Virus record (IMG/VR): IMGVR_UViG_3300045988_172778
Coordinates: 1 to 64,000 of that record
Direction: 5' to 3' (one strand)
Source of the DNA: a virus
DNA: 64,000 nt
Part shown: one piece after another, positions 121 through 17,762 of the stretch
How the letters are laid out: every line of letters starts with the position of its first letter
Numbering within the stretch: position 1 is the stretch's first letter
The notes under the pieces: model-generated
Seen by the model: only the letters and a program-made list of their open reading frames with translations
Databases searched by the model: none
Told to the model about the DNA's origin: nothing
Program-made: the position numbers and the translations under genes

Positions 121-153
121 TGGAACATCCGCGTTTTTAAGGCGGTGCGGATG
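121..153. repeat. Conserved intergenic hairpin element, copy 1
   Basis: TGGAACATCCGCGTT is identical to 12791-12805. 7-bp stem CATCCGC(126-132)/GCGGATG(147-153). Confidence 0.6.
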
Positions 154-176
154 AAAGACCACCGTGTTGTTACGGG

Positions 177-266: not shown

Positions 267-353
267 GTTAGAACCTCCTGTTATTGTCTTGAATTGATTT
301 CACTAACACATAAATACCAACAAACAATATAAACCACGCAAGTACCACTCACA

Positions 354-548: not shown

Positions 549-549
549 A

Positions 550-759
550 TCAAAGAACCTCCTTTAATTTTTTCATCAAATTCGAGTAAAACTCGTTCAT
601 CTCTTTCGCGTGTTCGAGCGCCTTGTCGTATTCTTCGTCGTAGCGCCCGAGTCTGTTGTAAGCGATTTCGAGTTTGTAGCGTTCGCACTCAAACTTCTTT
701 ACTTGATAGCACACGCAAGCAATCACTTTTTCTTTTTCGAGTTCTGTTAATTTTTCCAT
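550..759 (-). CDS. hypothetical protein (69 aa)
   Basis: ORF with GGAGGTAAAATAAC-ATG. Confidence 0.6.
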   Translation of the reverse strand: MEKLTELEKEKVIACVCYQVKKFECERYKLEIAYNRLGRYDEEYDKALEHAKEMNEFYSNLMKKLKEVL

Positions 760-760
760 G

Positions 761-1015
761 TTATTTTACCTCCAAGGTTGTTAATCTGTCGAAAACACAG
801 TTCCCGTTCTTCGTGAAATGATAAGCGAGAACTTTCCAATCGCCTTCCCAAGTCCACGAAACCTCCCAACCGAGAGCTGCGTTTGTCGCGGTTTTACCGA
901 CGAGAGTTTTGCCATCTTCTGTTTCCGTTATTAGGCGGCGGCAAGGGTTGCCGTAAATGCTGTTGTTAAGTTTTTCTACTTTTAAGATTTTGAGTTTTGC
1001 TTTAAATTCTTTCAT
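761..1015 (-). CDS. hypothetical protein (84 aa)
   Basis: ORF with AAGGAG SD. Confidence 0.6.
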   Translation of the reverse strand: MKEFKAKLKILKVEKLNNSIYGNPCRRLITETEDGKTLVGKTATNAALGWEVSWTWEGDWKVLAYHFTKNGNCVFDRLTTLEVK

Positions 1016-1028
1016 AATTTTTCTCCTT

Positions 1029-1301
1029 TTAAATATTCAAAGATTTTCTGACTTCGATTATGAGCAAGCCCGTTATGTCGTTATACGAAATAAAACTATA
1101 TTCCGTGTACCAAGCGCCAGGTTCGACAAAGTAATGCGGATTCTCGAAGCCGAAACGTTCCATAATCATTTCAGGCGACATTGCTTGCTCTTCGATGTTA
1201 TCCATCTCATCTTCCGACAAGCGGTAAACTTCGAGATAAACGAGAGATTCGCAATCGGGTTCATAGGGTGTGTAAGTTCCAGATTTAGTTAAAAATTCCA
1301 T
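1029..1301 (-). CDS. hypothetical protein (90 aa)
   Basis: Start moved to the internal ATG (MEFLTKSG), which is preceded by GGAGGTAAAATAT. Confidence 0.6.
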   Translation of the reverse strand: MEFLTKSGTYTPYEPDCESLVYLEVYRLSEDEMDNIEEQAMSPEMIMERFGFENPHYFVEPGAWYTEYSFISYNDITGLLIIEVRKSLNI

Positions 1302-1316
1302 ATATTTTACCTCCAA

Positions 1317-1718
1317 TTAAAAATTGCATTTCAAAATTTCGATAAGCATCGAATTGTGGTCGACGTGTTGGATATAGACAAACCCGTTGATTTCTTCGTT
1401 GTACCATTTCAACGCCTCTTCGAGGTCGCACGTGCTATCAACCGTGCAGATTTCTCCGTTGGGCGCATCAAGTGTGATGACTTCGTAGTGAGCCGCGAAT
1501 TCCGTAAAGTTGAGTTCGAGTTTGTCGAGATATTTGAGCTCTTCTTTCGTCGGGATTTTGTCATCTTCATAGTATTCAAGCACTGCGGCAAAACGCCATT
1601 CCGACAAATCGTCATCATCTGCTTCGGACAGGTAGCCTTTGCAGTTCTTGAGGAAATTAGCGCGGTATCTTACATCCTCTTCTACAAACATTTCAAGTCC
1701 TGATTTAAAGTTTTCCAT
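1317..1718 (-). CDS. hypothetical acidic protein (133 aa)
   Basis: ORF with AAAGGAG SD. Confidence 0.65.
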   Translation of the reverse strand: MENFKSGLEMFVEEDVRYRANFLKNCKGYLSEADDDDLSEWRFAAVLEYYEDDKIPTKEELKYLDKLELNFTEFAAHYEVITLDAPNGEICTVDSTCDLEEALKWYNEEINGFVYIQHVDHNSMLIEILKCNF

Positions 1719-1730
1719 AATAACTCCTTT

Positions 1731-1766
1731 GCGGTGGAATAACCGCCACCGCTCGGTTTTTATTTT
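1731..1766 (+). terminator. Hairpin plus T-run, oriented as a plus-strand (antisense) intrinsic terminator
   Basis: GCGGTGG(1731-1737)/CCACCGC(1746-1752) followed by TCGGTTTTTATTTT. On the minus strand the hairpin sits directly before the SD of 1317-1718. Confidence 0.4.
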
Positions 1767-2154
1767 ACTTTTTTAAGTTTATTTTAGACAAAAGAACTTT
1801 TTCCCTAAAAGAGAAATCTTCGTCTTTGCCTTTAAAGGTATCTTTTATATACCCTATATAATTATACTTTTCTTTTAGCTCTTCTATGTCTTTTACTACT
1901 TCTCTATATTCATCATCTGATAAATCTTTGAGATGTTTTTTATCCCATTTTTTCCAAAATTGTCTCGCAATTGAATTTTCTGGTAAAAGTTGATCTTGGG
2001 CTTGTCCGCAACGTTTATAGTCTCTTTTATTCTTAAAAAATTCATTCGCCTTTGTTGCGAAGTAGGGGTTTTCGTTATTCTCTAATGTGTAATACTCTAC
2101 TTCAAATATAACTAATTTTGTTATTTGAAAATAATATTTGAATTCTTTTTTCAT
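1765..2154 (-). CDS. hypothetical protein (129 aa), visibly AT-rich gene
   Basis: ORF with AAAAGGAG SD. By eye its composition is more AT-rich than its neighbours. Confidence 0.65.
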   Translation of the reverse strand: MKKEFKYYFQITKLVIFEVEYYTLENNENPYFATKANEFFKNKRDYKRCGQAQDQLLPENSIARQFWKKWDKKHLKDLSDDEYREVVKDIEELKEKYNYIGYIKDTFKGKDEDFSFREKVLLSKINLKK

Positions 2155-2210
2155 ACAACTCCTTTTCGGCTCTTGACGTATGAGAGTGTCCCGACGTATG
2201 TTGATTAGTT
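2155..2210 (-). repeat. Conserved intergenic motif, copy A (CTAATCAA..GGGACACT..GCCGAAAAGGAG)
   Basis: Aligns with 5585-5642 when read on the minus strand. It begins at a stop codon and ends at the next SD. Confidence 0.55.
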
Positions 2211-2404
2211 ATTTAAAGCTTCCAAATAAGCTTTGTATTGAGCCATCACGTTTTGCAGCGCTTGCTTACTTTCCTCATCAAATTGAGAAGAGTAATAGTT
2301 AATCGCTGTGCATGCCCAAGAGACAAAATTTTGCTTTTCTTCGGTTGTGCCAGTTTTGCGACTTCGATTGCGTCATTGATTGCTTGTTGTAATTCTTTAT
2401 CCAT
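2205..2404 (-). pseudogene. Small ORF needing a -1 frame change (or a homopolymer error)
   Basis: Frame 0 reads MDKELQQAINDAIEVAKLAQ, then runs into nonsense. The -1 frame reads EEKQNFVSWACTAINYYSSQFDEESKQALQNVMAQYKAYLEALNN-stop. The switch lies near GAAGAAAAGCAAAATTTTG. Confidence 0.35.
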
Positions 2405-2418
2405 AATATTTTACCTCC

Positions 2419-2793
2419 TTAATATTCCGAAATAATGATATAAACATCGCCGATTCTGTTTACCCATTCGCTGTCGAGCGGGTCGCATTCATCATCTGGC
2501 AAATTCCATTCCGTCAAAACGTATTTTATCGCGTCCGATTTGCTCCCGATAAAATCACAATTGCAAACGAGCCAATTCATCAAATCAGGAACGGTTTCAA
2601 AGCTTTTGAGCATTTCGATGTAACCTTGATATTGCTCTTCGAACGTCGGGTCGGTATCGTCATATCTTTCGAGCGGAAGGTAATCGAGATAATTTTTGTC
2701 GGAATCGAAGAGTTTCACTCTATCTTGCTCTTCGCGGTTTCCGAGTTCTTCGATGTAAAAGTCGCCTAAATAGTTGTTATTGATTTTACGCAT
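2419..2793 (-). CDS. hypothetical protein (124 aa)
   Basis: ORF with AAAGGAGGTAAAGAAC-ATG. Confidence 0.65.
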   Translation of the reverse strand: MRKINNNYLGDFYIEELGNREEQDRVKLFDSDKNYLDYLPLERYDDTDPTFEEQYQGYIEMLKSFETVPDLMNWLVCNCDFIGSKSDAIKYVLTEWNLPDDECDPLDSEWVNRIGDVYIIISEY

Positions 2794-2814
2794 GTTCTTT
2801 ACCTCCTTTATGCG

Positions 2815-3027
2815 TTAAATTTCCATTAAGTATTCGTCGCCCATGCAATTCGGGCAACCTTTGAAAACTTCATGTCTTACAGTTTTCGTGTCTTCGGGAA
2901 CGGGACCTTGCAGGACAAACCTGTCGATCGAGTGCCATTCGCCGTCGATAAGTTCAGTCTTTTCGACAATGTAAGATAAGTCGTTTTCGGTTTCAAAGAT
3001 TTCTTCACAATTGCAACATTTTATCAT
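2815..3027 (-). CDS. small zinc-ribbon protein (70 aa)
   Basis: CCNC...CPNC cysteine pairs. SD AAAGGAGG. Confidence 0.6.
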   Translation of the reverse strand: MIKCCNCEEIFETENDLSYIVEKTELIDGEWHSIDRFVLQGPVPEDTKTVRHEVFKGCPNCMGDEYLMEI

Positions 3028-3048
3028 AAATTTTGCCTCCTTTATGCG

Positions 3049-3360
3049 TTAAATTTCTTTGTTTAAATACAATTGTTGTTTGTATTTTCTATGTTCGCGC
3101 ATTATCGCAGCCCACTCTTCTTTTGTGGGGCGATAATCTTTCCAGTGTTTTTTTATTCGTTCGTCTTGTTTGCGCTTTATTTCTGGATTAACGATTAACT
3201 GAATTGTTTTACGACTTACACCGAATTGTTTTGCAAGAGGGCGAGTTCCAACCCCGCCCTCTGCATATATTGATTTGATTTGTTCTTTTTGGTCATCGGT
3301 TAATTTGCGCCGACGATCTTTTTCTGGTGGCAATTTAATTTTTTCTGATTTGTATGGCAT
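3049..3360 (-). CDS. helix-turn-helix DNA-binding protein (resolvase/Hin-type HTH)
   Basis: GTRPLAKQFGVSRKTIQLIV preceded by a basic region. SD AAGGAG. Confidence 0.55.
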   Translation of the reverse strand: MPYKSEKIKLPPEKDRRRKLTDDQKEQIKSIYAEGGVGTRPLAKQFGVSRKTIQLIVNPEIKRKQDERIKKHWKDYRPTKEEWAAIMREHRKYKQQLYLNKEI

Positions 3361-3372
3361 TTTATATCTCCT

Positions 3373-3765
3373 TTATACGTTTATTTCGTAAGTGCAGTTT
3401 TCAAGATTGATTTCGTTATAGTGATTACAAATCATATCAATCAAATCAATCTCATATTGATATTTCTTCAACTCTTCTTTATGATCGAGCCAACCCTCAA
3501 GTGTGTCGGGAATGTCGTCGCAACTAAATCCGAGTTCATCAACCCAGACGTTGCACAAATCTTCGTCGATGTAATCATCGATATAAATCGACATTCTTTC
3601 GAAGATTTGTTCTGCTGTCTCGAAGCGGTCATCTTCGATGTCGCCTATATTCGCTCCTTGACGATCTTCCAACCCGAAGCCGTCTTCGTACTTGATTAAC
3701 GAAAATTCCGTTAATTCGAGAAAAGAGTCAAAAAGTTTTTCGTATTTGTTTTGGTTTTTGTTCAT
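3373..3765 (-). CDS. hypothetical acidic protein (130 aa)
   Basis: ORF with GGAGGTATAAAAA-ATG. Confidence 0.65.
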   Translation of the reverse strand: MNKNQNKYEKLFDSFLELTEFSLIKYEDGFGLEDRQGANIGDIEDDRFETAEQIFERMSIYIDDYIDEDLCNVWVDELGFSCDDIPDTLEGWLDHKEELKKYQYEIDLIDMICNHYNEINLENCTYEINV

Positions 3766-3768
3766 TTT

Positions 3769-4005
3769 TTATACCTCCAAATTTTCTATTATTCTGTAAA
3801 CCGCGAATTCGCGAATTTTATAACAAAGCCCGTTATTGGGGTCATTTGTCTTTTGGTAATCGTCGGTGCGATAAGCGATTTTATAAATTTCGCACAATGT
3901 TTCGATGTTTTTGTTGCCATCGCACATCGCCATAAAAGACAAATCATCGACTGTGGAAGCCCAACCATCTGTTTCTAATCTTCTCATAAATTCTGCCTGT
4001 GTCAT
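3769..4005 (-). CDS. hypothetical protein (78 aa)
   Basis: ORF with AAAGGAGG SD. Confidence 0.6.
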   Translation of the reverse strand: MTQAEFMRRLETDGWASTVDDLSFMAMCDGNKNIETLCEIYKIAYRTDDYQKTNDPNNGLCYKIREFAVYRIIENLEV

Positions 4006-4017
4006 AATAAACCTCCT

Positions 4018-4335
4018 TTAATTAAAATTTTCTTCTGGAATGTTTGGACAGTAATCTTCATGAAACGTTATGTGAAAACAAGATTTATCGTCTTGCTTCA
4101 TTCTCCCATCGTCATCATAATACTCCAGATCTTCCATGTATGTTTGCCCACGATTTACGCATTCTAAACTTCTTAGAAATTCAAGAATCGCGTGCTTGTT
4201 TTTTATAAGAAAATCGTATTCTGCGCCCTTGAACTCATTGAAATAAATGGTGTATTTCCCATCGCGAGTTTCGAGCCTGCCTTTGATTTCGATTTTGCTT
4301 ACAAATTGCTGTAATTGAGCTTTGATAAAAATCAT
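4018..4335 (-). CDS. hypothetical protein (105 aa)
   Basis: Start moved to the ATG (MIFIKAQ) preceded by GAGGAGG. Confidence 0.6.
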   Translation of the reverse strand: MIFIKAQLQQFVSKIEIKGRLETRDGKYTIYFNEFKGAEYDFLIKNKHAILEFLRSLECVNRGQTYMEDLEYYDDDGRMKQDDKSCFHITFHEDYCPNIPEENFN

Positions 4336-4346
4336 AATAAACCTCC

Positions 4347-4547
4347 TCAGATTTTCTCTTCTTCCCAGCCGAACCATTTGTATGCTTCGACCATTTTGCT
4401 GATTGCCGACTTTTCGACCTTTATCGGTTCTCCGTAAAAACTCACGAAATCGCGATAAAACTTGCGGTTTGCAACGTCGACGCGAAGCCGCGCCGTATTG
4501 CCGTTTTTGTCTGTTTTACCTTTAAATTCGATAATTTCTGCTGTCAT
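4347..4547 (-). CDS. hypothetical protein (66 aa)
   Basis: Start moved to the ATG (MTAEIIEF) preceded by CGGAGG. Confidence 0.55.
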   Translation of the reverse strand: MTAEIIEFKGKTDKNGNTARLRVDVANRKFYRDFVSFYGEPIKVEKSAISKMVEAYKWFGWEEEKI

Positions 4548-4582
4548 TAATAAACCTCCGATTTTATTCAGAAAAAGATGGG

Positions 4583-4993
4583 TTATAAGCCCATCTTTTT
4601 CCATTTTTCTTCAAGAGCCTTTTCATTCAGCTCTTTTAAGTGTGCAAGCAATCCTTCCGAGAGAACTACCTTTTCGTCGTGAGTGTTGATTTTGCGAAGT
4701 TCTTCTTTTTCTTCATCAGTCAAGTCATCTTTGTATAACGTTCTGATGATGTCGATAAGTTCGCCGTAAATGTCAGCCGAGAACGAATAACCATATCCGT
4801 GACGACCTTTTCCGTAATAAGTCGTGAAATTACCGAAGCTTTGAAGAACTTCCATATAAGTTATATTTCCACGCTTCTTGTGGTCGATGTCGGTTACAAT
4901 GAAATACGGCTGAACGAACGGACGTTCTTTGCTTTCTATCGTGATGAAGAAATAGTCGGGTTTGCCTGCTTTGTAAATACTGTTGAATTCCAT
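4583..4993 (-). CDS. hypothetical protein (136 aa)
   Basis: ORF with TAGGAGGAATTCTTAT-ATG. Confidence 0.65.
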   Translation of the reverse strand: MEFNSIYKAGKPDYFFITIESKERPFVQPYFIVTDIDHKKRGNITYMEVLQSFGNFTTYYGKGRHGYGYSFSADIYGELIDIIRTLYKDDLTDEEKEELRKINTHDEKVVLSEGLLAHLKELNEKALEEKWKKMGL

Positions 4994-5161
4994 ATAAGAA
5001 TTCCTCCTAAAAATTTATTTGCGATTTGCGGATTGCTGTACGAGACCGCAGGCTCGCTTGCCCACCAGACGCTTTACCACTTCGGCAGGGACGTCTAAGC
5101 CCATTCAACGCTTTCGCGAGGAGTGCCTAATTCAGATTTGTCTAATCGTGATTTGACGATT

Positions 5162-5584
5162 TTAGTAATGCCAAGTGCAAATCAGTTCGTGATCAGTTTT
5201 ATCGATTACCTTGCATAAGCGACCATAATCAATATCGCCGAATTCATCGAGGAAACCGACTCTTATCCAATCTCCGACTTTGATATATAACGGAGCAGTG
5301 TCTCTTTTGAAGGTAATTTGATTACCTTCGCCGTAATGGTATTCGTCGGCAGTCACTTTCCAATCGACACCCCAATCATCATCGTCATCCTCTTCCTCTT
5401 CTTCGTCTTCTTCGTCTTCGAACGGGTCAAAACCCCAATCTTTTAAGTCTTCATCGGTTATCCCGATATCAGTTCCGAGCGTTAAGAGACGTTCGTAAGT
5501 TTCTTCTGCGGAGGTTTCTTCGCATAAATCGTTTACGAGTGCTTCGAGCAATTCTGCCTTTTTCTGTAATTCTAAGTTTTTCAT
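5162..5584 (-). CDS. highly acidic protein (140 aa)
   Basis: Start at MKNLELQ, preceded by AAAGGAA. Contains FEDEEDEEEEEDDDDDWG. Confidence 0.6.
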   Translation of the reverse strand: MKNLELQKKAELLEALVNDLCEETSAEETYERLLTLGTDIGITDEDLKDWGFDPFEDEEDEEEEEDDDDDWGVDWKVTADEYHYGEGNQITFKRDTAPLYIKVGDWIRVGFLDEFGDIDYGRLCKVIDKTDHELICTWHY

Positions 5585-5642
5585 AATAATTCCTTTTTCG
5601 GCTTTCAAGCAGGAAAGTGTCCCAAGGCTGTTTTGATTAGAG
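5585..5642 (-). repeat. Conserved intergenic motif, copy B
   Basis: CTAATCAAAACAGCCTTGGGACACTTTCCTGCTTGAAAGCCGAAAAAGGA on the minus strand. Aligns with 2155-2210. Confidence 0.55.
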
Positions 5643-6194
5643 AATTCCTTCGTCTTCGAGGGCTGTCTCGATGTCATCCATTGTGATACATACTTCGCAA
5701 TCTTCAGGGATCTCCCTGTCACAAGTTCTGTCATCTGTATATTTGATTACAACGGCTGGCGTATCTCCTCCATAAATTTCCGATTCGAAAAGTACGTAGG
5801 TTACACCGTTATGCGTTAAGTGGTCGATTTCATACCAAGTGCCGATTCGTCCCTCGATTCTGATATTATCGAGTTTCATATGCGGCAGTCTTTCGCGGTC
5901 TAAAACCAACTCATCTTTCAACGGAGTATAATCGATAAGATACTCGTTCCAAACCGCTTCGGTTATGTCTTCGCAATCGTCGAAGATTGTTTCGAGAAGC
6001 CAACGAAGTTGTTCGTTGGTATCTTTAATCGCCGATTGCCCGTAATATCGCCAACTAATGAATTTCGACGGATAAGGCGAGTGGAAGATTGCTCCTCCAA
6101 ACGCCTTGCCGTTCTTTTGCACGGGAATGTAGATTTTCCCGTTGTTGATGTTTCTGCGGATTTCCGCAATTTCCTGATTTGTGAATTTACGCAT
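5637..6194 (-). CDS. hypothetical protein (185 aa)
   Basis: Start moved to MRKFTNQ, preceded by TAAGGAGGTAATAAAC. Confidence 0.65.
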   Translation of the reverse strand: MRKFTNQEIAEIRRNINNGKIYIPVQKNGKAFGGAIFHSPYPSKFISWRYYGQSAIKDTNEQLRWLLETIFDDCEDITEAVWNEYLIDYTPLKDELVLDRERLPHMKLDNIRIEGRIGTWYEIDHLTHNGVTYVLFESEIYGGDTPAVVIKYTDDRTCDREIPEDCEVCITMDDIETALEDEGIL

Positions 6195-6207
6195 GTTTAT
6201 TACCTCC

Positions 6208-6498
6208 TTATGCGTTTTCTTTTGAAGTTTGTACGCGAGTGCATAATTCATAACTGCTTGTGCCATCGCTGTTGCTCGAACGATAATATTCGTCCGTATT
6301 TTTGAGAATTTCGTTTTCTCTATCTTCATCGATTAAAAATGCGATATCTTGATGTTTAAGTTCTTCGAATTTCTCCATCATATCTTCTTCAGTGTCGAAG
6401 ATATAAACAATGTAGTCGACTGCTAAATCATCGACGCAAGTTGCGAATAAGACATAAATTTCTTTTTGCGATTTTGTACAGTTTTTAACAGTAAGCAT
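6208..6498 (-). CDS. hypothetical protein, tandem paralogue 1 (96 aa)
   Basis: Shares Y-I/V-x-F-D-x-E-x-x-x-x-EKFE-L..D..FL and a C-terminal KNA with 6510-6785. Confidence 0.65.
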   Translation of the reverse strand: MLTVKNCTKSQKEIYVLFATCVDDLAVDYIVYIFDTEEDMMEKFEELKHQDIAFLIDEDRENEILKNTDEYYRSSNSDGTSSYELCTRVQTSKENA

Positions 6499-6509
6499 AT
6501 TTTACCTCC

Positions 6510-6785
6510 TTATGCGTTTTTAGTTGTTAACAAATCGAGTGTATAGTGACTTTCGGCATAATCGCCTTCAGGATAGGATTGATACCAATACCCATCTCTT
6601 TCGATTACGTCATCTCTTTCCTCTTCTTTAAGGAACTCTGTGTCATCTGCGGCAAGTTGCTCAAATTTTTCGTGTGCTGCTTTTTCATTGTCGAAAATGA
6701 ATGTTTCGATTTCTTCGTAACCTTCCGAACAGCTGTTTTCAATAATGATGTAAAGTTCTGTTTTGTTTGTTCTTAAATCGTTCAT
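6510..6785 (-). CDS. hypothetical protein, tandem paralogue 2 (91 aa)
   Basis: Similar to 6208-6498. SD is present. Confidence 0.65.
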   Translation of the reverse strand: MNDLRTNKTELYIIIENSCSEGYEEIETFIFDNEKAAHEKFEQLAADDTEFLKEEERDDVIERDGYWYQSYPEGDYAESHYTLDLLTTKNA

Positions 6786-6845
6786 GGCTTAAAGCCCTCC
6801 TAAAAATATTTTTGCCCGTTTATGGTCGATAGCGCAACCAGGTTT

Positions 6846-7559
6846 TTAATCGATTTCTTCGATTTCTGCGATTTCGAAGCCGAAGTATTCTTCCACGTCT
6901 TCCAATGTCGGGCTATAAAACCCGCCCATTGAATCGACCACTTCGCCTTCCTCGACGATTTCGCGGCTCAATTCCTTGCCGTCCATTGATTGTCTGATTA
7001 CGACGGTCGGTTCGTAAAGCGTCCACTCATAAACGTTTCCTTCGAGGAAGTCACTATAAGTTTCGACTTCACTTTTGAGTGTTTCTTTCGCCTTTTCTTT
7101 CCAACCTTCTTCGTCTTTTAAACACGTTTGTGCGAGGTAGAAGTCCTTTTCGACGAAAATCAATCCTACGAACGAACTGTCCCAAGCGTCGAATCGATAA
7201 GTTTGCATCGAAATTCCGCTATGGTCAGTAATGTAAAGTGGTAATCCGCAAATGTTGTCTTGATTGAGAATGAACTGGATTTCTTCGGCGAACGTCATTT
7301 CGTCGATTTCCTCGTCGCTCTTCCCGTATTTGCGGCAAATTTCCGCGAGTTGCTCTTCGGTTTCTCTGTTGGTATTGCAATCGCCGAGTTGATAATGCCG
7401 ATTACGGCAAAGCATCGTTCCGAGGTTGTCCCACGAACGCGGGTCTTCCAAGAGTTCATCTTGCTCGATTACGAGACGGAGTTTTCTTCCGTCGGTGGTG
7501 GTGATAGAGAATTTGTCGCCTGCGTAAAGTTTTGTGGTTTTGTTAATCGTTTTAGTCAT
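6846..7559 (-). CDS. hypothetical protein (237 aa)
   Basis: Long ORF with GGAGGTATAAAAA-ATG. Confidence 0.7.
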   Translation of the reverse strand: MTKTINKTTKLYAGDKFSITTTDGRKLRLVIEQDELLEDPRSWDNLGTMLCRNRHYQLGDCNTNRETEEQLAEICRKYGKSDEEIDEMTFAEEIQFILNQDNICGLPLYITDHSGISMQTYRFDAWDSSFVGLIFVEKDFYLAQTCLKDEEGWKEKAKETLKSEVETYSDFLEGNVYEWTLYEPTVVIRQSMDGKELSREIVEEGEVVDSMGGFYSPTLEDVEEYFGFEIAEIEEID

Positions 7560-7578
7560 TTTTTATACCTCCTATGAC

Positions 7579-7854
7579 TTATTCTTTTTCGATTTTGAGA
7601 TTGTAACATTCAATCCCCATTTCTTCCCACATCGCGTCGAAGAAGCATTTATTCATCGCTCTTACATCTAACAATGTGAGTTTTGCCGAGAATGCGATTT
7701 CGTAACTAAGGAAATTCTGACGAAGCTCTAAATCTGCGAGATCGTATATATCCATTGCTTCGTTCATTGTGTCGTAAAAGCATTTATTCATTGCTCTTAC
7801 GTCGTCTGCGGTGAGTTCCGCGTTAAAGGTTATTTTGTACCATTTTTTAGTCAT
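7579..7854 (-). CDS. hypothetical protein with internal tandem duplication (91 aa)
   Basis: AELTADDVRAMNKCFYDTMNEAM and AKLTLLDVRAMNKCFFDAMWEEM form two half-repeats. Confidence 0.65.
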   Translation of the reverse strand: MTKKWYKITFNAELTADDVRAMNKCFYDTMNEAMDIYDLADLELRQNFLSYEIAFSAKLTLLDVRAMNKCFFDAMWEEMGIECYNLKIEKE

Positions 7855-7875
7855 TTTGTTACCTCCTAATGACTT

Positions 7876-8073
7876 TTATTTCTTTTCAACCAACATCGTC
7901 AAAACGTTGGTTAAAGTGTCTTGGATTTTGCGATAGCCTGCGTTGTATAGTGCTTCAGCTATTTGATGCCTTTGTTCGCCGTATAAGTGTTGTCCTGCAG
8001 GATTGCCGTCATAAGCAACAATGTTTTGCGGAACATCCAACATCATTTGTTTAATTTGCTGTTCTTTGTTCAT
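7876..8073 (-). CDS. hypothetical protein (65 aa)
   Basis: ORF with AAAGGAG SD. Confidence 0.55.
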   Translation of the reverse strand: MNKEQQIKQMMLDVPQNIVAYDGNPAGQHLYGEQRHQIAEALYNAGYRKIQDTLTNVLTMLVEKK

Positions 8074-8115
8074 TTTGGCTCCTTTCCCCGTATTGCCGTT
8101 AGGCCAGCAGTTTTT

Positions 8116-9351
8116 TTATTCTTCTATCGGTGCGCAATCCGATTTCCCTGCATTGCAGCCTTTGCATAACATTTGCAGGTTTTCATAAACCGTTTTACCA
8201 CCTTTGCTCCAAGGAACGATGTGATCGCCCGCCATATCTTCGAAGGCAAACTTCTTTCCGCAAATCGGGCAAATTCCATCTTGCTCTTTGTATTTGCGCT
8301 TTCTGTCAGCTTCGGGGAATGCTCTTGCTTGAAGTAAATTCATGTTTCCCGAAAGGACGGCTTCATAAACGTATTTCTCGTTCGAGATTTCCTCTGTTTC
8401 GAGAATTTCGCTTACTTTTTCGTCCAATCCTGTTTTATCGACGTCTTTGAAGCGGTTATATAACAAACCCCACTCAACGCCTTGCATAAGCTTGCGATAA
8501 GTGGGGAATGTTCTTGAGACCCAGGTAATCACATCGTCGTAATATCTCCATAACGCTTTTGCGTCTTCGTCGTGATAATGCTTTCCCATATATTCGTCGA
8601 TGTCGAATTTCGCTTTCTTTGTAAGAAGCGGGCGATTTACGTCATCCGCGTCACACGCCCAACCGAGCACCTTTTCGAGAAGATACTGTCTTGCGACCGA
8701 TTTCACGTCTTCTGATTTATCGCCCGTTTTTGCATCGACGTAATCTTTGTAACGCTGTTTCCCGATTACGGCGTCCATTGCCAATCCGTTGGTTCGAGAG
8801 AAGTATTTCTTTGCGTCCGTTACCCAACTGCCGTGGTAATTTGCATTTCGCAATTCCTGTTCTGTGAGTTTCACGCCTGCGATGTTGATTCGACGGAACC
8901 ATTTCATCTTCGAGATATTATCTCCTTCGCAAACGAACGCCATCAATTCGTAATTGTCGAATTCTTCTCTGCGAACTGCCAATGCGTCGTAAGTGAGTTT
9001 TCTCGAATTACCGTCGATTTCCGAAACTTCGACCGAGAATTGCCCTTTAACGAACTTGCAAATCGAAGTTATTCTCTGCTGTCCGTCGATGACTTCCAAT
9101 CTTCCGTCATCGAGTTTTGCGAGATAAATAACGTTCAACGGGCAACCTTCGAGAATTGTCGTGATAACTGCGTCTCTGCGCGGTTGTTCATAAACGAACT
9201 CTCTCTGGTAGGGAGGGGTTATGTTAAGTAACCCATTCATTGTGGTTCTTTCGCCTGTGGAAGTGTTTTCGACGTATCCGCGAGTGAGTTCTTTTACAGT
9301 TAAGGGATGACCGTAAGTTTCTGTGAAAGTTGTGATTTTCATGGTTTTCAT
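8116..9351 (-). CDS. DUF262 (ParB/GmrS-like) N-terminal domain fused to a C-terminal HNH nuclease
   Basis: PPYQREFVY...VIDGQQRITS is the DUF262 hallmark DGQQR. The C-terminus reads CPICGKK...GDHIVPWSKGGKTVYENLQMLCKGCNAGKSD (HNH). Confidence 0.7.
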   Translation of the reverse strand: MKTMKITTFTETYGHPLTVKELTRGYVENTSTGERTTMNGLLNITPPYQREFVYEQPRRDAVITTILEGCPLNVIYLAKLDDGRLEVIDGQQRITSICKFVKGQFSVEVSEIDGNSRKLTYDALAVRREEFDNYELMAFVCEGDNISKMKWFRRINIAGVKLTEQELRNANYHGSWVTDAKKYFSRTNGLAMDAVIGKQRYKDYVDAKTGDKSEDVKSVARQYLLEKVLGWACDADDVNRPLLTKKAKFDIDEYMGKHYHDEDAKALWRYYDDVITWVSRTFPTYRKLMQGVEWGLLYNRFKDVDKTGLDEKVSEILETEEISNEKYVYEAVLSGNMNLLQARAFPEADRKRKYKEQDGICPICGKKFAFEDMAGDHIVPWSKGGKTVYENLQMLCKGCNAGKSDCAPIEE

Positions 9352-9352
9352 T

Positions 9353-9802
9353 TTAGTTTACCTCCGATTTATCTTCTATATTTAACATTGGTTTTAAAAA
9401 ATAACGCAAAGATCCAGTTTTACAACATTTAGTATTTATTTTTTGTACTATAGAAAGCATGATTTCTAAATCTTCTGGAGTAGCCTTTACTGTTATTTCT
9501 GTTGTTGTTGTATGCGCGATAACTTTATTTCTAAAACATCTATATTTTAAACGCAGGTCTTCTATTTGTTTAATTTGTGATTGATCATAATCCGATTTAT
9601 TAACGGTGAGATTGTCTTCATGCGAATCGCCCCAATCTGTAAGTCCAAGAAATCTATTGATAACAAAGCACGATAAATCAAAAATAACGATATCAATAAA
9701 ATTATTTGTTTTTCTTGTCTCTATTCTTAAATCATTTAATTCTTTAATAATAGTGATCTCGCAAATCATCTGATTTGCAATGTCTTCTATGGTTTTCATC
9801 AT
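9353..9802 (-). CDS. HEPN-like small helical protein (149 aa), AT-rich
   Basis: FRNKVIAH fits the HEPN Rx4-6H motif. Its start overlaps the methyltransferase stop (ATGATGA), and its stop lies 1 nt before the next start. Confidence 0.4.
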   Translation of the reverse strand: MMKTIEDIANQMICEITIIKELNDLRIETRKTNNFIDIVIFDLSCFVINRFLGLTDWGDSHEDNLTVNKSDYDQSQIKQIEDLRLKYRCFRNKVIAHTTTTEITVKATPEDLEIMLSIVQKINTKCCKTGSLRYFLKPMLNIEDKSEVN

Positions 9803-10791
9803 TTCTTCCTCCTAATTAAAATTCTTGCATTCGGCATTTTAGCCTTTCCTTTTTCGTATAGGACAAGATTTTTCATATTCGCTGTCACGTGTCCAGTGCC
9901 TCCGTTTTCTTTATAACATTTGAGCCACGTCTCTCCAATCTTTCCAATTCCAAGTTCGTCGGCTGTATCAGCGTTTACAACTCCAACAACATCAAACTGC
10001 TCCTTATTAAAAGAATTGAAGAAACTCGGTCCATAAACTCCCATAACTCCGAAATAATCTCTTGGAATTCTGCGAATCTGATTTACCTCAATCGCGTCGT
10101 AATTGTCGTATTTCGGGTATTCATCTTCGTGACCTTCATATTGGCAACACAACGGAAGTTCTTCGTTGTATTTATCGAGCTTAAAAGTCGTGAACCAAGC
10201 GACCGTTCCGATTTTCTTGAACGTTCCATCGGGGACTTTGAATTCTTTTACGTGATTGTAACCGAAATTCAATTTGCCGCTTTGGAATAACGGGAAAATT
10301 TCTTTCGAAGTGCATTGAACTTCGTTGGCGATTATGACCATATCTTTCTTATGATCGACAATCAATCCAATGAACTCTCGAAGAAGGCTGAAGGGCGGGT
10401 TTGTTACAACCACGTCGCATTCATCGAGAAGCGCGACGCATTCGGGGGAACGGAAATCTCCATTCCCTTTGAGCGGCGTTTTGATGAGGTTGAGTGTATC
10501 GTAACCGAGATAATCTCCATTCCATTCGAGTTTGTAAGACGGAGAACCGTTCATTTCGTAATGGGTGAAAATCACCTTTTTGAGTTTCAACTGTTTGAAG
10601 TGAAGACGGAAGAAGAGGAAGAAGTTCGACCATTCGGGGTCATCGCAGTTGCATAAAACCGTCTTGCCCTCGAATTGGCGAACGTAATCTTCGTGCATCG
10701 AGATTTCGTCTTCGATGTCTTCGAGACGAGTATACCACTCGTCGTTTTTGTTCGTCTTTGCAGCTTGCATTGCTTTGTTATTTTTTGCCAT
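9799..10791 (-). CDS. N6-adenine DNA methyltransferase (EcoRI-methylase-like family)
   Basis: NDEWYT near the N-terminus, CNCDDPEWSNFF, and catalytic VVTNPPFS (NPPF motif IV). Confidence 0.75.
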   Translation of the reverse strand: MAKNNKAMQAAKTNKNDEWYTRLEDIEDEISMHEDYVRQFEGKTVLCNCDDPEWSNFFLFFRLHFKQLKLKKVIFTHYEMNGSPSYKLEWNGDYLGYDTLNLIKTPLKGNGDFRSPECVALLDECDVVVTNPPFSLLREFIGLIVDHKKDMVIIANEVQCTSKEIFPLFQSGKLNFGYNHVKEFKVPDGTFKKIGTVAWFTTFKLDKYNEELPLCCQYEGHEDEYPKYDNYDAIEVNQIRRIPRDYFGVMGVYGPSFFNSFNKEQFDVVGVVNADTADELGIGKIGETWLKCYKENGGTGHVTANMKNLVLYEKGKAKMPNARILIRRKK

Positions 10792-10817
10792 AATATTTTA
10801 CCTCCATAATTGTCTTT

Positions 10818-10846
10818 ATTATATCATGTTTTGTTGCTTTTGTCAA
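10818..10846 (-). promoter_or_regulatory. sigma70-type promoter for the methyltransferase operon
   Basis: Minus strand: AACGCTTGACA-N17-TATAAT (-35 at 10841-10846, -10 at 10818-10823). Confidence 0.65.
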
Positions 10847-11081
10847 GCGTTTTTACGCGCCTTTCCCTTTCGGGACGAGCGTAGTCGGGATTTTCCTTTC
10901 TACGCTCTTTGATTGCGCTTGCCGTTTTGCCGCGTTGCTCGTTCCGTTGCATAATCAACTTTTCGTTTAGCGAGCATAATTTCCACGCAATGTCTTGACC
11001 CTCGCTTCCACGCGGGAAGTTCGTACCGAGAAAGTTCTCGATACGAATGAGCAGTTGTAAATCTTCGTTTTTAATGTTCAT
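10824..11081 (-). CDS. hypothetical basic protein (85 aa)
   Basis: ORF with AAAGGAGG SD. The 3' end overlaps the promoter. Confidence 0.55.
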   Translation of the reverse strand: MNIKNEDLQLLIRIENFLGTNFPRGSEGQDIAWKLCSLNEKLIMQRNEQRGKTASAIKERRKENPDYARPERERRVKTLDKSNKT

Positions 11082-11098
11082 AAGAACCTCCTTTGAAC

Positions 11099-11278
11099 TT
11101 AATCCTTAATTACGCCGTAAATGTCATCGACGTAATAACCCGCGAAAATATTGTAAATCGCGGTACACTTCTTACCGTTGTATTCAACGATAATGTCGTT
11201 ATCTCCGTTGTATTGGAGAATGGTTACTTCGGCAAATTTGCCGTCGAGTGAGTGAATGTGTGCTTGTATTTTGTTCAT
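11099..11278 (-). CDS. hypothetical protein (59 aa)
   Basis: MNKIQAHIHSLDGKFAEVTILQYNGDND... with TGGAGG SD. Below the ORF-track cutoff. Confidence 0.45.
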   Translation of the reverse strand: MNKIQAHIHSLDGKFAEVTILQYNGDNDIIVEYNGKKCTAIYNIFAGYYVDDIYGVIKD

Positions 11279-11336
11279 ATCGAACCTCCAAATTTTATTG
11301 CGATTATTCAGGCGAACATCGCGAAACGCCGTTTGT

Positions 11337-11429
11337 TAAAGTCTGATGTAAACCATCAGAACCGCGACTGCTGCTGCGATTATCGATATCCACCACGGAT
11401 AACCGATTCTCGTTTTTTCACGCTTCATC
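11337..11429 (-). CDS. tiny predicted membrane peptide (30 aa)
   Basis: MKREKTRIGYPWWISIIAAAVAVLMVYIRL. GGAGG 9 nt upstream. Confidence 0.3.
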
Positions 11430-11435
11430 GTCTTT

Positions 11436-11567
11436 TACCTCCTTCTGTAATTTGCGAGGGTCGTGTTCGGACCCTTTGTTTGCCACGCCCGTCGAAGATT
11501 TGACGGGTTCTTTGTTCTTTTCGAGCCAAGCTTTACGAGCAAGCTCTTTCATCTCTTTGAGTGTCAT
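11436..11567 (-). CDS. hypothetical basic peptide (43 aa)
   Basis: MTLKEMKELARKAWLERTKNPSN... with AGGAGGAGTT-ATG. ATGA overlap with the upstream ORF. Confidence 0.35.
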
Positions 11568-11743
11568 AACTCCTCCTTTAAACGTTTATTTTGCAATTTG
11601 GTTCTTTTTATATCGACGTCCTCTTGATATTTGAGATGAAAGAATTCCTTCTTCTCTTCTTTCGTCAGATGAATGTCGAAATCTTTGAGAATTTGGAGAG
11701 TATTTAAGCAATACTCTCGCGTGTTCCTATGCTTCCCTTTCAT
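11564..11743 (-). CDS. hypothetical protein (59 aa)
   Basis: MKGKHRNTREYCLNTLQILKDFDIHLTKEEKKEFF... with a G-rich SD. Confidence 0.45.
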   Translation of the reverse strand: MKGKHRNTREYCLNTLQILKDFDIHLTKEEKKEFFHLKYQEDVDIKRTKLQNKRLKEEL

Positions 11744-11747
11744 TTAA

Positions 11748-12176
11748 TCACCCCCCTTTTATTGCTTTCTTCAATGCTTCGGCTTCATCGACTAAACCGC
11801 TTCTTTTGAGAACGCGATAAGCGCTTGCGTAATCTCCGAGTTCAACGAAGACGCTTGCATCGTCTATCGCGAGTTCTTGCGAATACGCGACCACGCGTTT
11901 TGCCGCGTTTGTAAGCAACCGCTGCGCAACGCCTTTACGGTTGTATTTGCGTGTCTTGCGAACCTCGACTACGACTTTTGTTGTTTTACGAAGTTCTTCC
12001 GCTTCGAGCAATGCCATCTTTGCCGCGTGTAACTGCGCGAGATAGCATTTTTCTTCGATGCAGAAGCCCGCCTTCGGGCATATTGAGCAAGAACGCTCGA
12101 ACCGCGTTTTCGCTTCTTCGAGGGTCTTTGCCTCGTCTTGTAACTCAATTGCTCTGTTCTTGTTAAAGTATTTCAT
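11748..12176 (-). CDS. hypothetical protein (142 aa)
   Basis: ORF with AAAGGAGGTAAAGTAAC-ATG. Confidence 0.65.
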   Translation of the reverse strand: MKYFNKNRAIELQDEAKTLEEAKTRFERSCSICPKAGFCIEEKCYLAQLHAAKMALLEAEELRKTTKVVVEVRKTRKYNRKGVAQRLLTNAAKRVVAYSQELAIDDASVFVELGDYASAYRVLKRSGLVDEAEALKKAIKGG

Positions 12177-12177
12177 G

Positions 12178-12387
12178 TTACTTTACCTCCTTTACGTCTG
12201 TCCAGTTGTAAGTCGCTGCTTTGCCTGTGCGCTTCGTGACTTTGCCACACAAGTTCATACAGTATTGATGTGCTTCGTCCAAGCACTGCTGTTTGGTTTC
12301 GTGAAGAGAAGTTTCAAACTCATCCTTCGAAATCGTCTTGTCATCGATGATGACATCAAAATTGATTTTGTAAGATTTGTTAATCAT
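12178..12387 (-). CDS. hypothetical protein (69 aa)
   Basis: Start moved to MINKSYK, preceded by AAGGAG. Confidence 0.55.
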   Translation of the reverse strand: MINKSYKINFDVIIDDKTISKDEFETSLHETKQQCLDEAHQYCMNLCGKVTKRTGKAATYNWTDVKEVK

Positions 12388-12527
12388 AGGATAACTCCTT
12401 TGCCGACGGCCGCTTCGAACGATCTGATTGTGTCGGCTTGGCTTTGCTTTCTGCAAAAACCCATGAGCGCCGCGCATTGCTGCGCATCGGACTTACACCG
12501 ATTACTCTTGCGAGCAGGCCTTGCGGG

Positions 12528-12731
12528 TTACGCTGTATATTGATAAATAGTTGGGAAACCGTTATCTCGCTCAATTTCACAAGCAACCGCTTCGCAACGC
12601 ATGTGGGCTTTTTCCCAAAGTTTATCTTCGCTTTCGGCACTTACTTCAAAAGTAAGTGTTTTGACTTTTCTCCACTCATCGTTCATTAAGTCGTGAGCTT
12701 CGAAGTTTGCTGTAATTTTCTTTGTTAACAT
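12528..12731 (-). CDS. hypothetical protein (67 aa)
   Basis: ORF with AAAGGAA SD. Confidence 0.55.
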   Translation of the reverse strand: MLTKKITANFEAHDLMNDEWRKVKTLTFEVSAESEDKLWEKAHMRCEAVACEIERDNGFPTIYQYTA

Positions 12732-12790
12732 GATAGTTTCCTTTGCTCTAAACCCCTGAACGTCCTATCTACGTTCGCGAAAGGTATTAA

Positions 12791-12822
12791 TGGAACATCC
12801 GCGTTGTTTCGCAGTGCGGGTG
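12791..12822. repeat. Conserved intergenic hairpin element, copy 2
   Basis: TGGAACATCCGCGTT, then stem CATCCGC(12796-12802)/GCGGGTG(12816-12822). The variant position is a G.U pair only if read as plus-strand RNA. Confidence 0.6.
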
Positions 12823-12837
12823 TAAGGCTGCGTCGAA

Positions 12838-12972
12838 CTATTTTTCAAGTTCAATTAAGCGGCGTTCGACCGCTTTCGCGACTTCCCAGTCGTGAGCTTT
12901 GCGAGCTCTTTCGAGCCACGTCGTAAGCTTCGACTTATCGGTCGCAGTGCGGATGTAATCGAAAACGTCCAT
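12838..12972 (-). CDS. hypothetical protein (44 aa)
   Basis: MDVFDYIRTATDKSKLTTWLERARKAHDWEVAKAVERRLIELEK with GGAGGTG SD. Confidence 0.4.
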   Translation of the reverse strand: MDVFDYIRTATDKSKLTTWLERARKAHDWEVAKAVERRLIELEK

Positions 12973-12977
12973 TGCGT

Positions 12978-13136
12978 TCACCTCCTTTGAGATTCTTGTT
13001 CAAGTAGTGTGTACTTGAGAGCGTAAAGCTTTTCGAGTTTCGCGTTGATGCGAGCTTGTTCAGCTTCGTTGCCGTGTGCCTCACGTCTTGCGACGAGAAG
13101 GTTCGCAATTGCTTGCTGTAAGGATTCGAGTGTCAT
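12978..13136 (-). CDS. hypothetical coiled-coil peptide (52 aa)
   Basis: MTLESLQQAIANLLVARREAHGNEAEQARINAKLEKLYALKYT... with TAGGAGG SD. It is the first gene of the leftward block. Confidence 0.45.
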   Translation of the reverse strand: MTLESLQQAIANLLVARREAHGNEAEQARINAKLEKLYALKYTLLEQESQRR

Positions 13137-13183
13137 TGTTTTATACCTCCTAATGACAGTAATTTCACTTATAAAAATACGTA

Positions 13184-13201
13184 AATTACATTATTGTAAT
13201 T
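13184..13201. promoter_or_regulatory. Operator-like perfect palindrome
   Basis: AATTACA-TTAT-TGTAATT, immediately upstream of the leftward block. Confidence 0.35.
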
Positions 13202-13230
13202 CACTTTTATTACTATATATTTAGTATATC

Positions 13231-13618
13231 GTTGCTCCTCATACATAACCCAAAAATACATTTCTCCATAAAATTTCGAATTCTCCTCCACTCCCTTCAA
13301 AAAAAATTTAAAAAATACAAAAATTTCCCCCCCCCTCTCTCCTCCCTCCCTTCCTCCCACCCCAATCCATCCCTAAAAACCCTCTCTTCTTCTCTTTATC
13401 CCGCCTTTCGTAAAAAAATTTTTTCCAAACCCGCCTATAAAACCTCCAAATTCCACTTTTATCCCCCCATCGAGTCACCCCCCCTCTAACTTGCTGGCAA
13501 CTTGCTGGCAACTTGCAGACCCCCTCAAATCCCCAATTTACACTTGCCCCTCCCGTTCCCTTCCCCTTTCACCCCTTTCCCCGAAAAATAAAAAAAATAA
13601 AAATCCCCCTCAAATCGC
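13231..13618 (+). other. Almost G-free polypyrimidine-rich non-coding tract
   Basis: I counted only 6 G in 13241-13480. C-runs up to C9, A/T runs, and no credible ORF. Confidence 0.85.
13488..13516 (+). repeat. Tandem 11-mer AACTTGCTGGC x2.6
   Basis: AACTTGCTGGC AACTTGCTGGC AACTTGC, read directly. Confidence 0.95.
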
Positions 13619-13647
13619 TTGACAAACCCTCTCTCTTGTGCTATACT
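13619..13647 (+). promoter_or_regulatory. sigma70-type promoter of the rightward island
   Basis: TCGCTTGACA-N17-TATACT. The SD and ATG follow about 20 nt later. Confidence 0.65.
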
Positions 13648-13669
13648 ATACTCAAACAAGGAGGCACTT

Positions 13670-14350
13670 ATGAAATTCGAAGAAATTCGTATTGGCGATT
13701 TAGTTAAAGCCAACCAGCTCTCAAACGATAGATATGTTTACACAACATTATCAAAGAATTGGGAGGGCGAAATTACGAACGTTGACATAAAGCATAAAAC
13801 TTTTATGTCTGGTAAATTTTATGATCTCGATCCAGAATGTTTCGATCTGGTGTCGCGGGATATATCAATTATGCCATTTTGTGGGAATAAAAAGATAAAC
13901 CCCTTTGACGTTATATTTGACCTGAACGTCCTCAAAATGAAGTCGGAGGAAGAAATCGACGAATATTTCAGACTCAAAATAACCGAACGCGGCTGGCCCG
14001 CCCATTATATCTGCGCCGAATCATGCACATTCCGTCGCAATACCCTCATCGAATACGCCGACCTGAAATGGGTCGTCTCGACAGTCGGGCGGCAACTTCC
14101 CGCAAAAGGGTACGATTATTGGGAAACCGTTGGGCACAACCGTTATTACGAAACGATGGCGTTCAAAGCCAAGCAAGACGGAATTTATTGGGACGCGGAT
14201 ACGTCTAACCCGATCGACTTCGATAGCGAGTGGGCAATACACGATTGCGCCGATGACAGCGAATTTCGGGCAAACGAAATGCACGATAAGGTGGTCGCGG
14301 AATTAAGCGAGAAAATCAAAAAGGCTTACGGAAAAGGAGACAAAATATGA
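13670..14350 (+). CDS. hypothetical protein (226 aa) with MKFEE-type N-terminal small domain
   Basis: Start at the ATG after AAGGAGG. The N-terminus MKFEEIRIGDLVKAN is paralogous to 14347 and 14830. Confidence 0.65.
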   Translation: MKFEEIRIGDLVKANQLSNDRYVYTTLSKNWEGEITNVDIKHKTFMSGKFYDLDPECFDLVSRDISIMPFCGNKKINPFDVIFDLNVLKMKSEEEIDEYFRLKITERGWPAHYICAESCTFRRNTLIEYADLKWVVSTVGRQLPAKGYDYWETVGHNRYYETMAFKAKQDGIYWDADTSNPIDFDSEWAIHDCADDSEFRANEMHDKVVAELSEKIKKAYGKGDKI

Positions 14351-17733: not shown

Positions 17734-17762
17734 ATTATACCATACCGCAACGCGTTTGTCAA
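17734..17762 (-). promoter_or_regulatory. sigma70-type promoter
   Basis: Minus strand: AACGCTTGACA-N17-TATAAT. Confidence 0.65.

Follow-up and report, generated by a model that had tools for sequence, protein, structure and literature searches.

A probable phage-borne restriction-modification gene pair with an accessory gene apparently inserted at the nuclease start codon

A 64,000-nucleotide (nt) stretch of viral DNA, positions 1 to 64,000 of the IMG/VR record IMGVR_UViG_3300045988_172778 (hereafter the window), carries three tightly coupled genes on its minus strand at 8116-10846, and the question raised by this locus is whether the three form one interdependent system or a common gene pair to which a third gene has been added. 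According to the list of open reading frames (ORFs), the genes, all on the minus strand, are M (9799-10791, 330 amino acids [aa]), X (9353-9802, 149 aa) and R (8116-9351, 411 aa). An earlier note on this DNA had described them as a promoter-driven, translationally coupled cassette of an adenine methyltransferase (M), a HEPN-like protein (X) and a DUF262-HNH nuclease (R), and had regarded this layout as non-standard. As set out below, we consider it probable that the locus is a phage-borne two-gene restriction-modification (R-M) module, consisting of M and R, with an accessory gene, X, inserted at the R start codon.

The domain calls made for M and R in that note were recovered by Pfam searches. 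M matched EcoRI_methylase (PF13651, E 2e-81) over the full length of the profile (positions 2-345 of 345) and the PADLOC profile MTase_II (E 2e-78); its NPPF motif occupies residues 131-134 (encoded at 10390-10401, minus strand) and its CNCDDP motif residues 47-52. R begins with a ParB-like GmrSD_N/DUF262 domain (PF03235, E 6e-22) containing an invariant DGQQR (residues 89-93, encoded at 9073-9087), continues through a helical linker and ends in a zinc-finger HNH domain (PF01844, E 4e-14; also PF14279), in which D376/H377, N391, N400 and two CxxC pairs are encoded at 8152-8226 (minus strand). The catalytic and zinc-binding residues of R were invariant across 18 homologues. Further, R matched the PADLOC profile PDLC03418 (REase_II, "Type II REase") with an E value of 1.7e-91 over profile positions 25-370 of 372. 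The R family is large: 7,618 of the 8,000 candidates scored fell below E 0.001.

We surveyed 180 loci with an R homologue, drawn from 80 bacterial genomes (including Neisseria perflava, Alysiella crassa, Campylobacter concisus, Treponema berlinense, many Bacteroidales and Saccharibacteria), 80 IMG/VR viral contigs and 20 contigs reached through specific proteins; individual loci are denoted below by L numbers. An EcoRI-like M was detected by tblastn upstream of R and on the same strand in 173 of these 180 loci, in bacteria, plasmids and phages alike, and in four of the seven loci without M the available upstream sequence is shorter than 400 nt. After dereplication, M and R were directly adjacent, that is, separated by no more than 150 nt and often overlapping, at 56 of 74 genome junctions and 53 of 72 viral junctions (∼75%). 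On isolate plasmids (e.g. pH8C110P-cfr), the coding sequences of the pair overlap and are annotated as "adenine-specific methyltransferase EcoRI family protein" and "DUF262 domain-containing protein." Overall, the results show that M and R constitute a very widespread two-gene module, which is the conserved core of the locus.

The linkage bears directly on the assignment of R, in the earlier note, to the modification-dependent (type IV) restriction enzymes of the GmrSD/BrxU type, a reading under which M would serve for anti-restriction self-protection or for a Pgl-like "reverse" marking of targets. R does resemble GmrSD, BrxU and SspE in having an N-terminal DUF262 domain with DGQQR (PMC4619093, PMC12065111) followed by a C-terminal nuclease of the His-Me type; SspE, in addition, acts alongside a cognate DNA-modification module, and the PADLOC profiles HEC-05, HEC-06 and NsnA matched R weakly, over the DUF262 portion only. 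However, the C terminus of R is a classic zinc-finger HNH domain (PF01844) with zinc-binding cysteines, and a Pfam search of R gave no match to DUF1524, the nuclease domain of GmrSD and BrxU. R is also, at 411 aa, shorter than these enzymes, its best profile is the full-length Type II REase, and it is almost always linked to an N6-adenine methyltransferase, whereas GmrSD and BrxU stand alone. Because a fixed, same-strand order of M and R, which is near-universal here, involves one methyltransferase family and often has overlapping stop and start codons, suits a methylation-protected enzyme and would be self-destructive for a methyl-dependent one, the pair reads as an ordinary R-M module with an unusual nuclease architecture and not as a type IV system. 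Modification dependence of R is thus unlikely as far as its sequence can tell, the type IV reading as a whole is very improbable, and the joining of a ParB-like DUF262 domain to an HNH nuclease appears to represent a methylation-protected rather than a methylation-dependent mode. With orthodox Type II systems the pair shares separate M and R genes, a fixed M-to-R operon, full-length profile matches and an occurrence on chromosomes, plasmids and phages; it differs from them in that R has a domain architecture better known from type IV enzymes, and the copy in the window differs further in having an extra gene between M and R and a phage as carrier.

The position occupied by X is variable. Inserts, defined as more than 300 nt between M and R, were found at 32 of 146 dereplicated, unbiased junctions (about 22%), and the inserted ORFs make up about 25 families that are unrelated to each other; BLASTP comparisons of middle genes from different loci likewise found no relationship. 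As assigned with Pfam and PADLOC, the cargo includes an HTH-Fic protein (SoFic/PDC-S04), a TIR protein (ThsB/PDC-S66), an OLD/AriA/GajA-like ATPase-TOPRIM protein, an ORF6N protein (PDC-S05, E 1e-65), a HEPN protein (PF05168, in L070), a Phd-ParE pair, a 603-aa PDC-S61-like protein and a second methyltransferase. Inserts with recognizable domains are thus of defence or toxin types, with the second methyltransferase also listed among them, and several other inserts belong to no known family. The inserts are usually lower in G+C (GC) content than M and R. Taken together, the M-R junction is a defence-gene embedding hotspot, and the layout that had seemed non-standard consists of a standard M-to-R pair with a variable slot in the middle position.

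Two further forms of the junction were seen in the survey. In L017-L019 (positions 1-6284, on contigs of 77-351 kb), a protein of more than 1,500 aa has the EcoRI_methylase domain at its C terminus and is followed by the 603-aa PDC-S61-like protein and then by the DUF262-HNH protein, a much enlarged form of the same three-position arrangement. In L164, L165, L171 and L175 (IMG/VR 3300045988 and 3300029583 contigs), M and R are separated by 500-860 nt without a plus-strand ORF of at least 50 aa; these gaps could be decayed inserts or could hold opposite-strand genes, non-coding RNA or genes with stop-codon recoding.

Within the lineage of the window itself, the slot exists in three states. An X-family gene fills it in L001-L008, in which R is 98-87% identical to that of the window; it is empty in the sister phage contigs L187-L190 (R 93% and 89% identical), which have the same phage gene context and an M stop codon that overlaps the start codon of R; and it holds unrelated cargo at the same position in L191 (R 82% identical, a 165-aa gene) and L009 (R 76% identical, a 180-aa gene). 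These X-plus, X-minus and other-cargo variants of one phage lineage form a natural set with which the dependence between effector and R-M pair can be addressed.

Comparison of the variants defines how X came to lie where it does. The insert-free junction reads AGGAGGAAGAAATAATGAAAACCATGAAAATC, with the ribosome-binding site (RBS) for R inside the C-terminal codons of M and the M stop overlapping the R start (TAATG); at the overlap itself, insert-free relatives have GAAATAATGAAAACCATGAAAATC and the window has GAAATGATGAAAACCATAGAAG. The 3' end of M (AGGAGGAAGAAAT) is kept in X-bearing, other-insert and insert-free loci, and the window retains the left junction of the insert-free form (up to AGGAGGAAGAAATGATGAAAACCAT) and then runs into X. 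The AGGAGG in the last codons of M (9808-9813, minus strand), which is the RBS of R in insert-free relatives, is therefore retained upstream of X. An 11-nt direct repeat, ATGAAAACCAT, is present at both ends of the insert: its left copy (9789-9799, minus strand) corresponds to the original start region of R and is now the start of X, and its right copy (9341-9351, minus strand) is the true start of R. At the end of X, a new RBS (GGAGGTAAACTAAA) is followed by ATGAAAACCATGAAAATC, the true R start; the GGAGG that serves R (9361-9365, minus strand) comes from the 3' end of the insert, which terminates in TCGGAGGTAAACTAAAATG. Relative to L009, the window loses DNA similarity at 9983, within the 3' end of M, and regains it at 9352, exactly where R starts.

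The RBS at the end of M has been taken over and R has received a new one; the junction sequences indicate that X entered exactly at the R start codon, as a cassette of an ORF plus a new RBS, with translational coupling kept on both sides. The stop codon of M shares 4 nt (ATGA) with the start of X, and the X stop is separated from the R ATG by 1 nt. The GC content of X is 0.282 (0.22 at third codon positions) compared with 0.422 for M and 0.446 for R. The suspicion that the AT-rich middle gene had been acquired separately is thus confirmed by the drop in GC content, by the insert-free L187-L190 and by the break in similarity to L009 at the junctions. Together, the insert-free sisters and the anatomy of the junction resolve the "triad" into a pair plus cargo, so that an apparently exotic arrangement is reclassified as a common R-M pair with a plug-in gene. 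A hotspot of single-nucleotide precision in an abundant Type II-like R-M family also provides a cheap source of candidate defence genes.

Some additional features of the region around the insert were observed. The 3' linker of X is kept in the window and in the sub-lineage X loci L001-L003 and L007, and not in L181; the unrelated inserts of L009 and L191 use another. This other linker, ACACAAATAAAGAAAGGAAACCAC, is common to L009 (4940-5000) and L191 (2940-3000) and lies right before the R start in both, although the inserts (180 aa and 165 aa) are unrelated, which may point to a conserved segment, an exchange or leader sequence, that serves in the swapping of cargo. Further, the last 50-60 codons of M (9831-9983 in the window) are a divergence hotspot, where DNA similarity to the close loci L001-L003 and L009 breaks, and many M homologues can be aligned only to about residue 270-285. 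This suggests that the C terminus of M is a variable module or a recombination block that moves with the insert. Upstream, in some copies of a related phage (L010-L012, 870-1973), an IS605 OrfB/TnpB (Cas12f1-like_TNB) gene has inserted ∼1.4 kb 5' of the M gene of an M-insert-R cassette; it is absent from L009.

We considered how closely X is tied to M and R. An X-family gene was found between M and R in seven of the nine contexts examined (L001, L002/L004, L003/L005/L006, L007, L008, L181 and L182). In L181 and L182, the X homologue is 28% identical to that of the window and M and R are only 37% identical, so that the association has either been kept through deep divergence or arisen more than once. 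One could therefore propose an obligate three-component system, in which M, X and R are interdependent, the system combines self-marking with attack on differently modified DNA and X is the integral ribonuclease arm; the tight coupling of the three genes behind a single promoter, and the recurrence of X between M and R even where all three proteins are at 28-37% identity, are in line with this proposal. On the other hand, about 75% of M-R modules have no middle gene, the nearest X-less relatives (R 93% and 89% identical) lie in the same phage gene context, unrelated genes fill the same slot in other relatives, and X homologues exist without M-R. An obligate triad is accordingly improbable, and X looks, from this comparison, to be accessory cargo that the M-R pair does not need. 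The conservation of the triad as a unit, on which the earlier note had made its own proposal depend, was thus found only in part: X is kept within the sub-lineage and recurs at 28-37% identity, but the closest X-less relatives have no middle gene and others have unrelated ones. On the most economical reading, X occupies an embedding hotspot as a second-line effector that works either autonomously or in loose cooperation with M and R.

X appears to represent a previously undescribed, rare family. Only 8 homologues were found in a set of 5.8 billion proteins and 9 representatives (E ≤0.001) in a set of 1.84 billion, and a profile search of the 5.8-billion-protein set with a widened X alignment yielded no further members and none with a Pfam annotation. 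The sole strongly conserved block of the family is R91-N-K-V-I-A-H97 (codons at 9512-9532, minus strand). Across 16 sequences, with identities down to 19%, D63, Y87, R91, K93, H97 and T99 are invariant and N92 is present in at least 90%; the resulting motif, Y87-x3-R91-N-K-x3-H97-x-T, is of the Rx5H form and lies inside the Rx4-6H definition of HEPN ribonucleases. HEPN_AbiU2 (PF18734) was the only Pfam family matched by all nine close members, with a best E value of 7e-4 and no score reaching the gathering cut-off; sub-threshold matches to it were also found in four of eight distant members, always across the motif region. The AF2 model of X is all-helical, with five to six helices (pLDDT about 81, pTM 0.77), and the weak, non-significant Foldseek hits of X are repeatedly HEPN proteins, namely HepT (6m6u, 6m6w, 7bxo, 5yep), the integron-cassette HEPN 3jrt and the HEPN toxin 7ae8, at TM-scores of 0.35-0.5. 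X thus resembles lactococcal AbiU2 and HepT-type HEPN toxins in being small and all-helical, in its R-[N]-x-x-x-x-H type motif and in its weak likeness to PF18734 and HepT; it differs from them in that it falls below every significance threshold, has neither an MNT antitoxin nor an AbiU1 partner and belongs to a very small family. The HEPN proposal is weakly supported, by the invariant motif, the sub-threshold HEPN_AbiU2 matches and the recurrent non-significant fold hits; a significant profile or fold match did not emerge. On balance, membership of X in the HEPN superfamily is plausible but unproven, and we lean slightly toward it. An hhalign comparison of the X family with the 165-aa insert of L191 gave no similarity.

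Alternatively, X may not be a HEPN nuclease but a regulator or inhibitor that delays or restrains R, or a phage anti-defence protein riding in the operon. X is a small helical protein with no significant HEPN match in sequence or fold, it adjoins the 5' end of R and supplies the RBS of R, so that translation of X could gate that of R, and phage early regions are rich in anti-defence genes. However, no helix-turn-helix (HTH) or other DNA-binding family was detected in X with Pfam, NCBIfam, PADLOC or PHROGs, the invariant residues make up an R-N-K-x3-H motif that looks catalytic and not like a binding surface, the slot elsewhere holds effectors and toxins and not regulators, and the M-R pair of the relatives L187-L190 occurs without X. 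We therefore regard a non-HEPN role as unlikely, with a modest chance of being correct. Two specific candidates were rejected: X is not a C-protein-like controller, C-protein-controlled R-M systems differing in their small HTH controller, whereas X gave no HTH signal; and it is not a second, DpnA-like methyltransferase, as no methyltransferase signal was present.

The reading that we favor, an R-M pair with an inserted accessory gene, can be set against known systems. Defence genes nested in Hma, BREX, DISARM and type I R-M operons have been described as "guilt-by-embedding" (Payne et al. 2024, bioRxiv 10.1101/2024.01.29.577857). The present locus has the same features: X is flanked by M and R, with all three genes on one strand, close relatives have an insert-free M-R pair, and the variable slot elsewhere holds same-strand inserts of known defence or toxin genes as well as PDC cargo (PDC-S04, S05, S61, S66, ThsB and OLD/AriA/GajA profiles were matched here). 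It differs in that Type II pairs were outside the analysis of Payne et al. and in that the slot of this two-gene operon is confined to one point between the cistrons, the start codon of R, at which the insert brings an RBS for the downstream gene. Similarly, HEPN families including AbiU2 have been reported embedded in R-M operons, an Abi2/AbiD/AbiF HEPN protein has been found adjoining a "ParB and HNH" DNase protein, and HEPN genes in R-M operons have been interpreted as multilayer defence on the model of PrrC and EcoprrI (Anantharaman et al. 2013, PMC3710099). As in the PrrC/EcoprrI locus, where a HEPN anticodon nuclease resides in a type Ic R-M locus, a small candidate HEPN gene lies here inside an R-M operon on the same strand; here, however, X has no ABC-ATPase domain and a HEPN status that is only suggestive, the host system is two-gene and Type II-like rather than type I, and the element is a phage one. 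The case is therefore one of a known pattern, a HEPN/Abi gene (the former as a candidate) embedded in an R-M operon, and is less exotic than had been proposed; what is new is the two-gene Type II-like host pair, the entry at the R start codon, the undescribed X family and the phage carrier.

In this reading, the three genes share transcription from one strong promoter and are coupled in translation. M would methylate a specific sequence, both in phage DNA and in that of the occupied cell, and virion DNA would thus arrive pre-protected. R would cleave DNA without the mark, with the HNH domain as the catalytic center and the DUF262 domain as a probable nucleoside triphosphate-binding regulatory or sensor module, and its attack might be directed at co-infecting phages or at the host chromosome. 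X would most likely be a small AbiU2-like HEPN ribonuclease that acts as a second-line effector in an abortive or exclusion layer and may fire when restriction fails; it could be either an independent toxin of the abortive-infection type or a back-up tied to the R-M pair, as PrrC is to EcoprrI. A stricter version of the latter, in which X is a PrrC-like latent HEPN ribonuclease that is held in check by the M-R complex of the phage and is released when a competitor phage or host factor disables R, thereby aborting the co-infection, is distinctly unlikely. Were it true, the slot at the R start would be a general exchange point for second-line effectors (TIR, Fic, OLD and HEPN proteins) that read the state of the R-M system.

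A number of observations weigh against the interpretation of the locus as an R-M module with a HEPN effector as its cargo. The DUF262 domain is best known from modification-dependent enzymes. A search through source annotations and the literature gave no REBASE enzyme, no recognition sequence and no characterized member of the R family, the only names being "DUF262 domain-containing protein" and "HNH endonuclease," and the RefSeq label for R is the former alone. What an R-M module would do for a phage that is probably lytic is a matter of conjecture. Two distant homologues of X were found on phage-like contigs (L183; L184-L186) without M or R, which indicates that X may act on its own. With respect to the HEPN assignment, the best listed PF18734 score for the X family was 17.5 bits, compared with a gathering cut-off of 26.8 bits; in a second model of X, residues 95-102, the region of the conserved histidine, had a pLDDT below 50; Foldseek searches of the two models against the PDB and BFVD gave no hit with E ≤0.001 and TM-scores of no more than 0.5; searches of X against the PDB, with the single sequence and with a profile, returned nothing relevant; and hhalign detected no similarity between the X family and the PF05168 HEPN insert of L070.

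The transcriptional setting of the cassette agrees in part with the description given in the earlier note. A sigma-70-type promoter, TTGACA-17 nt-TATAAT with a TG extended −10 element, lies at 10818-10846 (minus strand) with a score of 12/12, and this site, the ATGA overlap and the 1-nt gap were all located where that note had placed them. Its −35 box falls within the 3' end of an 85-aa ORF upstream. Sites of the form TTGACA-17-TATAAT with at most one mismatch occur eight times in the window, compared with 0.65 expected, and eight were reached in 0 of 100 shuffles; because this count is far above chance, the sites are read as real phage promoters and not as random matches. The cassette promoter is kept in the nearest relative, L007, is present in similar form in L001 and is absent 5' of M in L002-L004. 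The idea that it is a built-in part of a mobile R-M cassette was rejected, since of 143 other loci only L007 has it 5' of M. No minus-strand terminator was predicted within 6000-13900, and the next ORF begins 43 nt past R; M, X and R belong to a longer leftward operon of small genes and not to a closed transcription unit. The eight near-perfect promoters are located at 10818-10846(−), 13619-13647(+), 17734-17762(−), 20931-20959(−), 21013-21041(+), 21588-21616(+), 39398-39426(+) and 57436-57464(−). Seven of the eight have the TG extended −10 element and some lie inside the structural region, and the phage seems to depend throughout on strong promoters of the host sigma-70 type.

That the carrier is a phage, as had been supposed, is confirmed by genes in the window for the terminase large subunit (30081-31985), a portal protein, a head protease, an exonuclease and a tail fibre. 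The DNA of 7500-11500 matched no GenBank phage. Among the 20 larger ORFs scanned in the window, which is part of a genome, no integrase or repressor was found, and a temperate phage carrying the cassette as a lysogeny-expressed moron is disfavored to that extent. A last possibility is that M and R adjoin by chance, R being an HNH endonuclease of the homing or packaging kind and M an orphan phage methyltransferase. HNH genes are common selfish elements in phages, and another HNH gene is present in the window at 39525-41453. R, however, does not adjoin the terminase gene, it matches R-M profiles over its full length and not homing-endonuclease PHROGs, and the M-R pair occurs in fixed order in hundreds of bacterial chromosomes and plasmids, which makes this explanation exceedingly improbable. 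The other HNH gene (39525-41453, plus strand) encodes a 642-aa homing-endonuclease-like protein (phrog_3339, E 2e-85), has its own perfect promoter (39398-39426) and lies among genes for structure and packaging, where it is probably a selfish insertion.

Two minor observations concern neighboring genes. A 74-aa protein of the DpnD/PcfM family (PF14207), whose name derives from conjugative plasmids and from the cassette region of the DpnII R-M system, is encoded in related phages 1.1-3.5 kb 3' of the R stop, namely in L002 (7357-7581), L003 (5988-6212), L181 (9062-9286) and L190 (5345-5569). In the window, ORFs of 364 aa (38246-39340, plus strand) and 356 aa (38249-39319, minus strand) are nearly co-extensive on opposite strands, and one of the two is presumably a shadow ORF of a structural gene.

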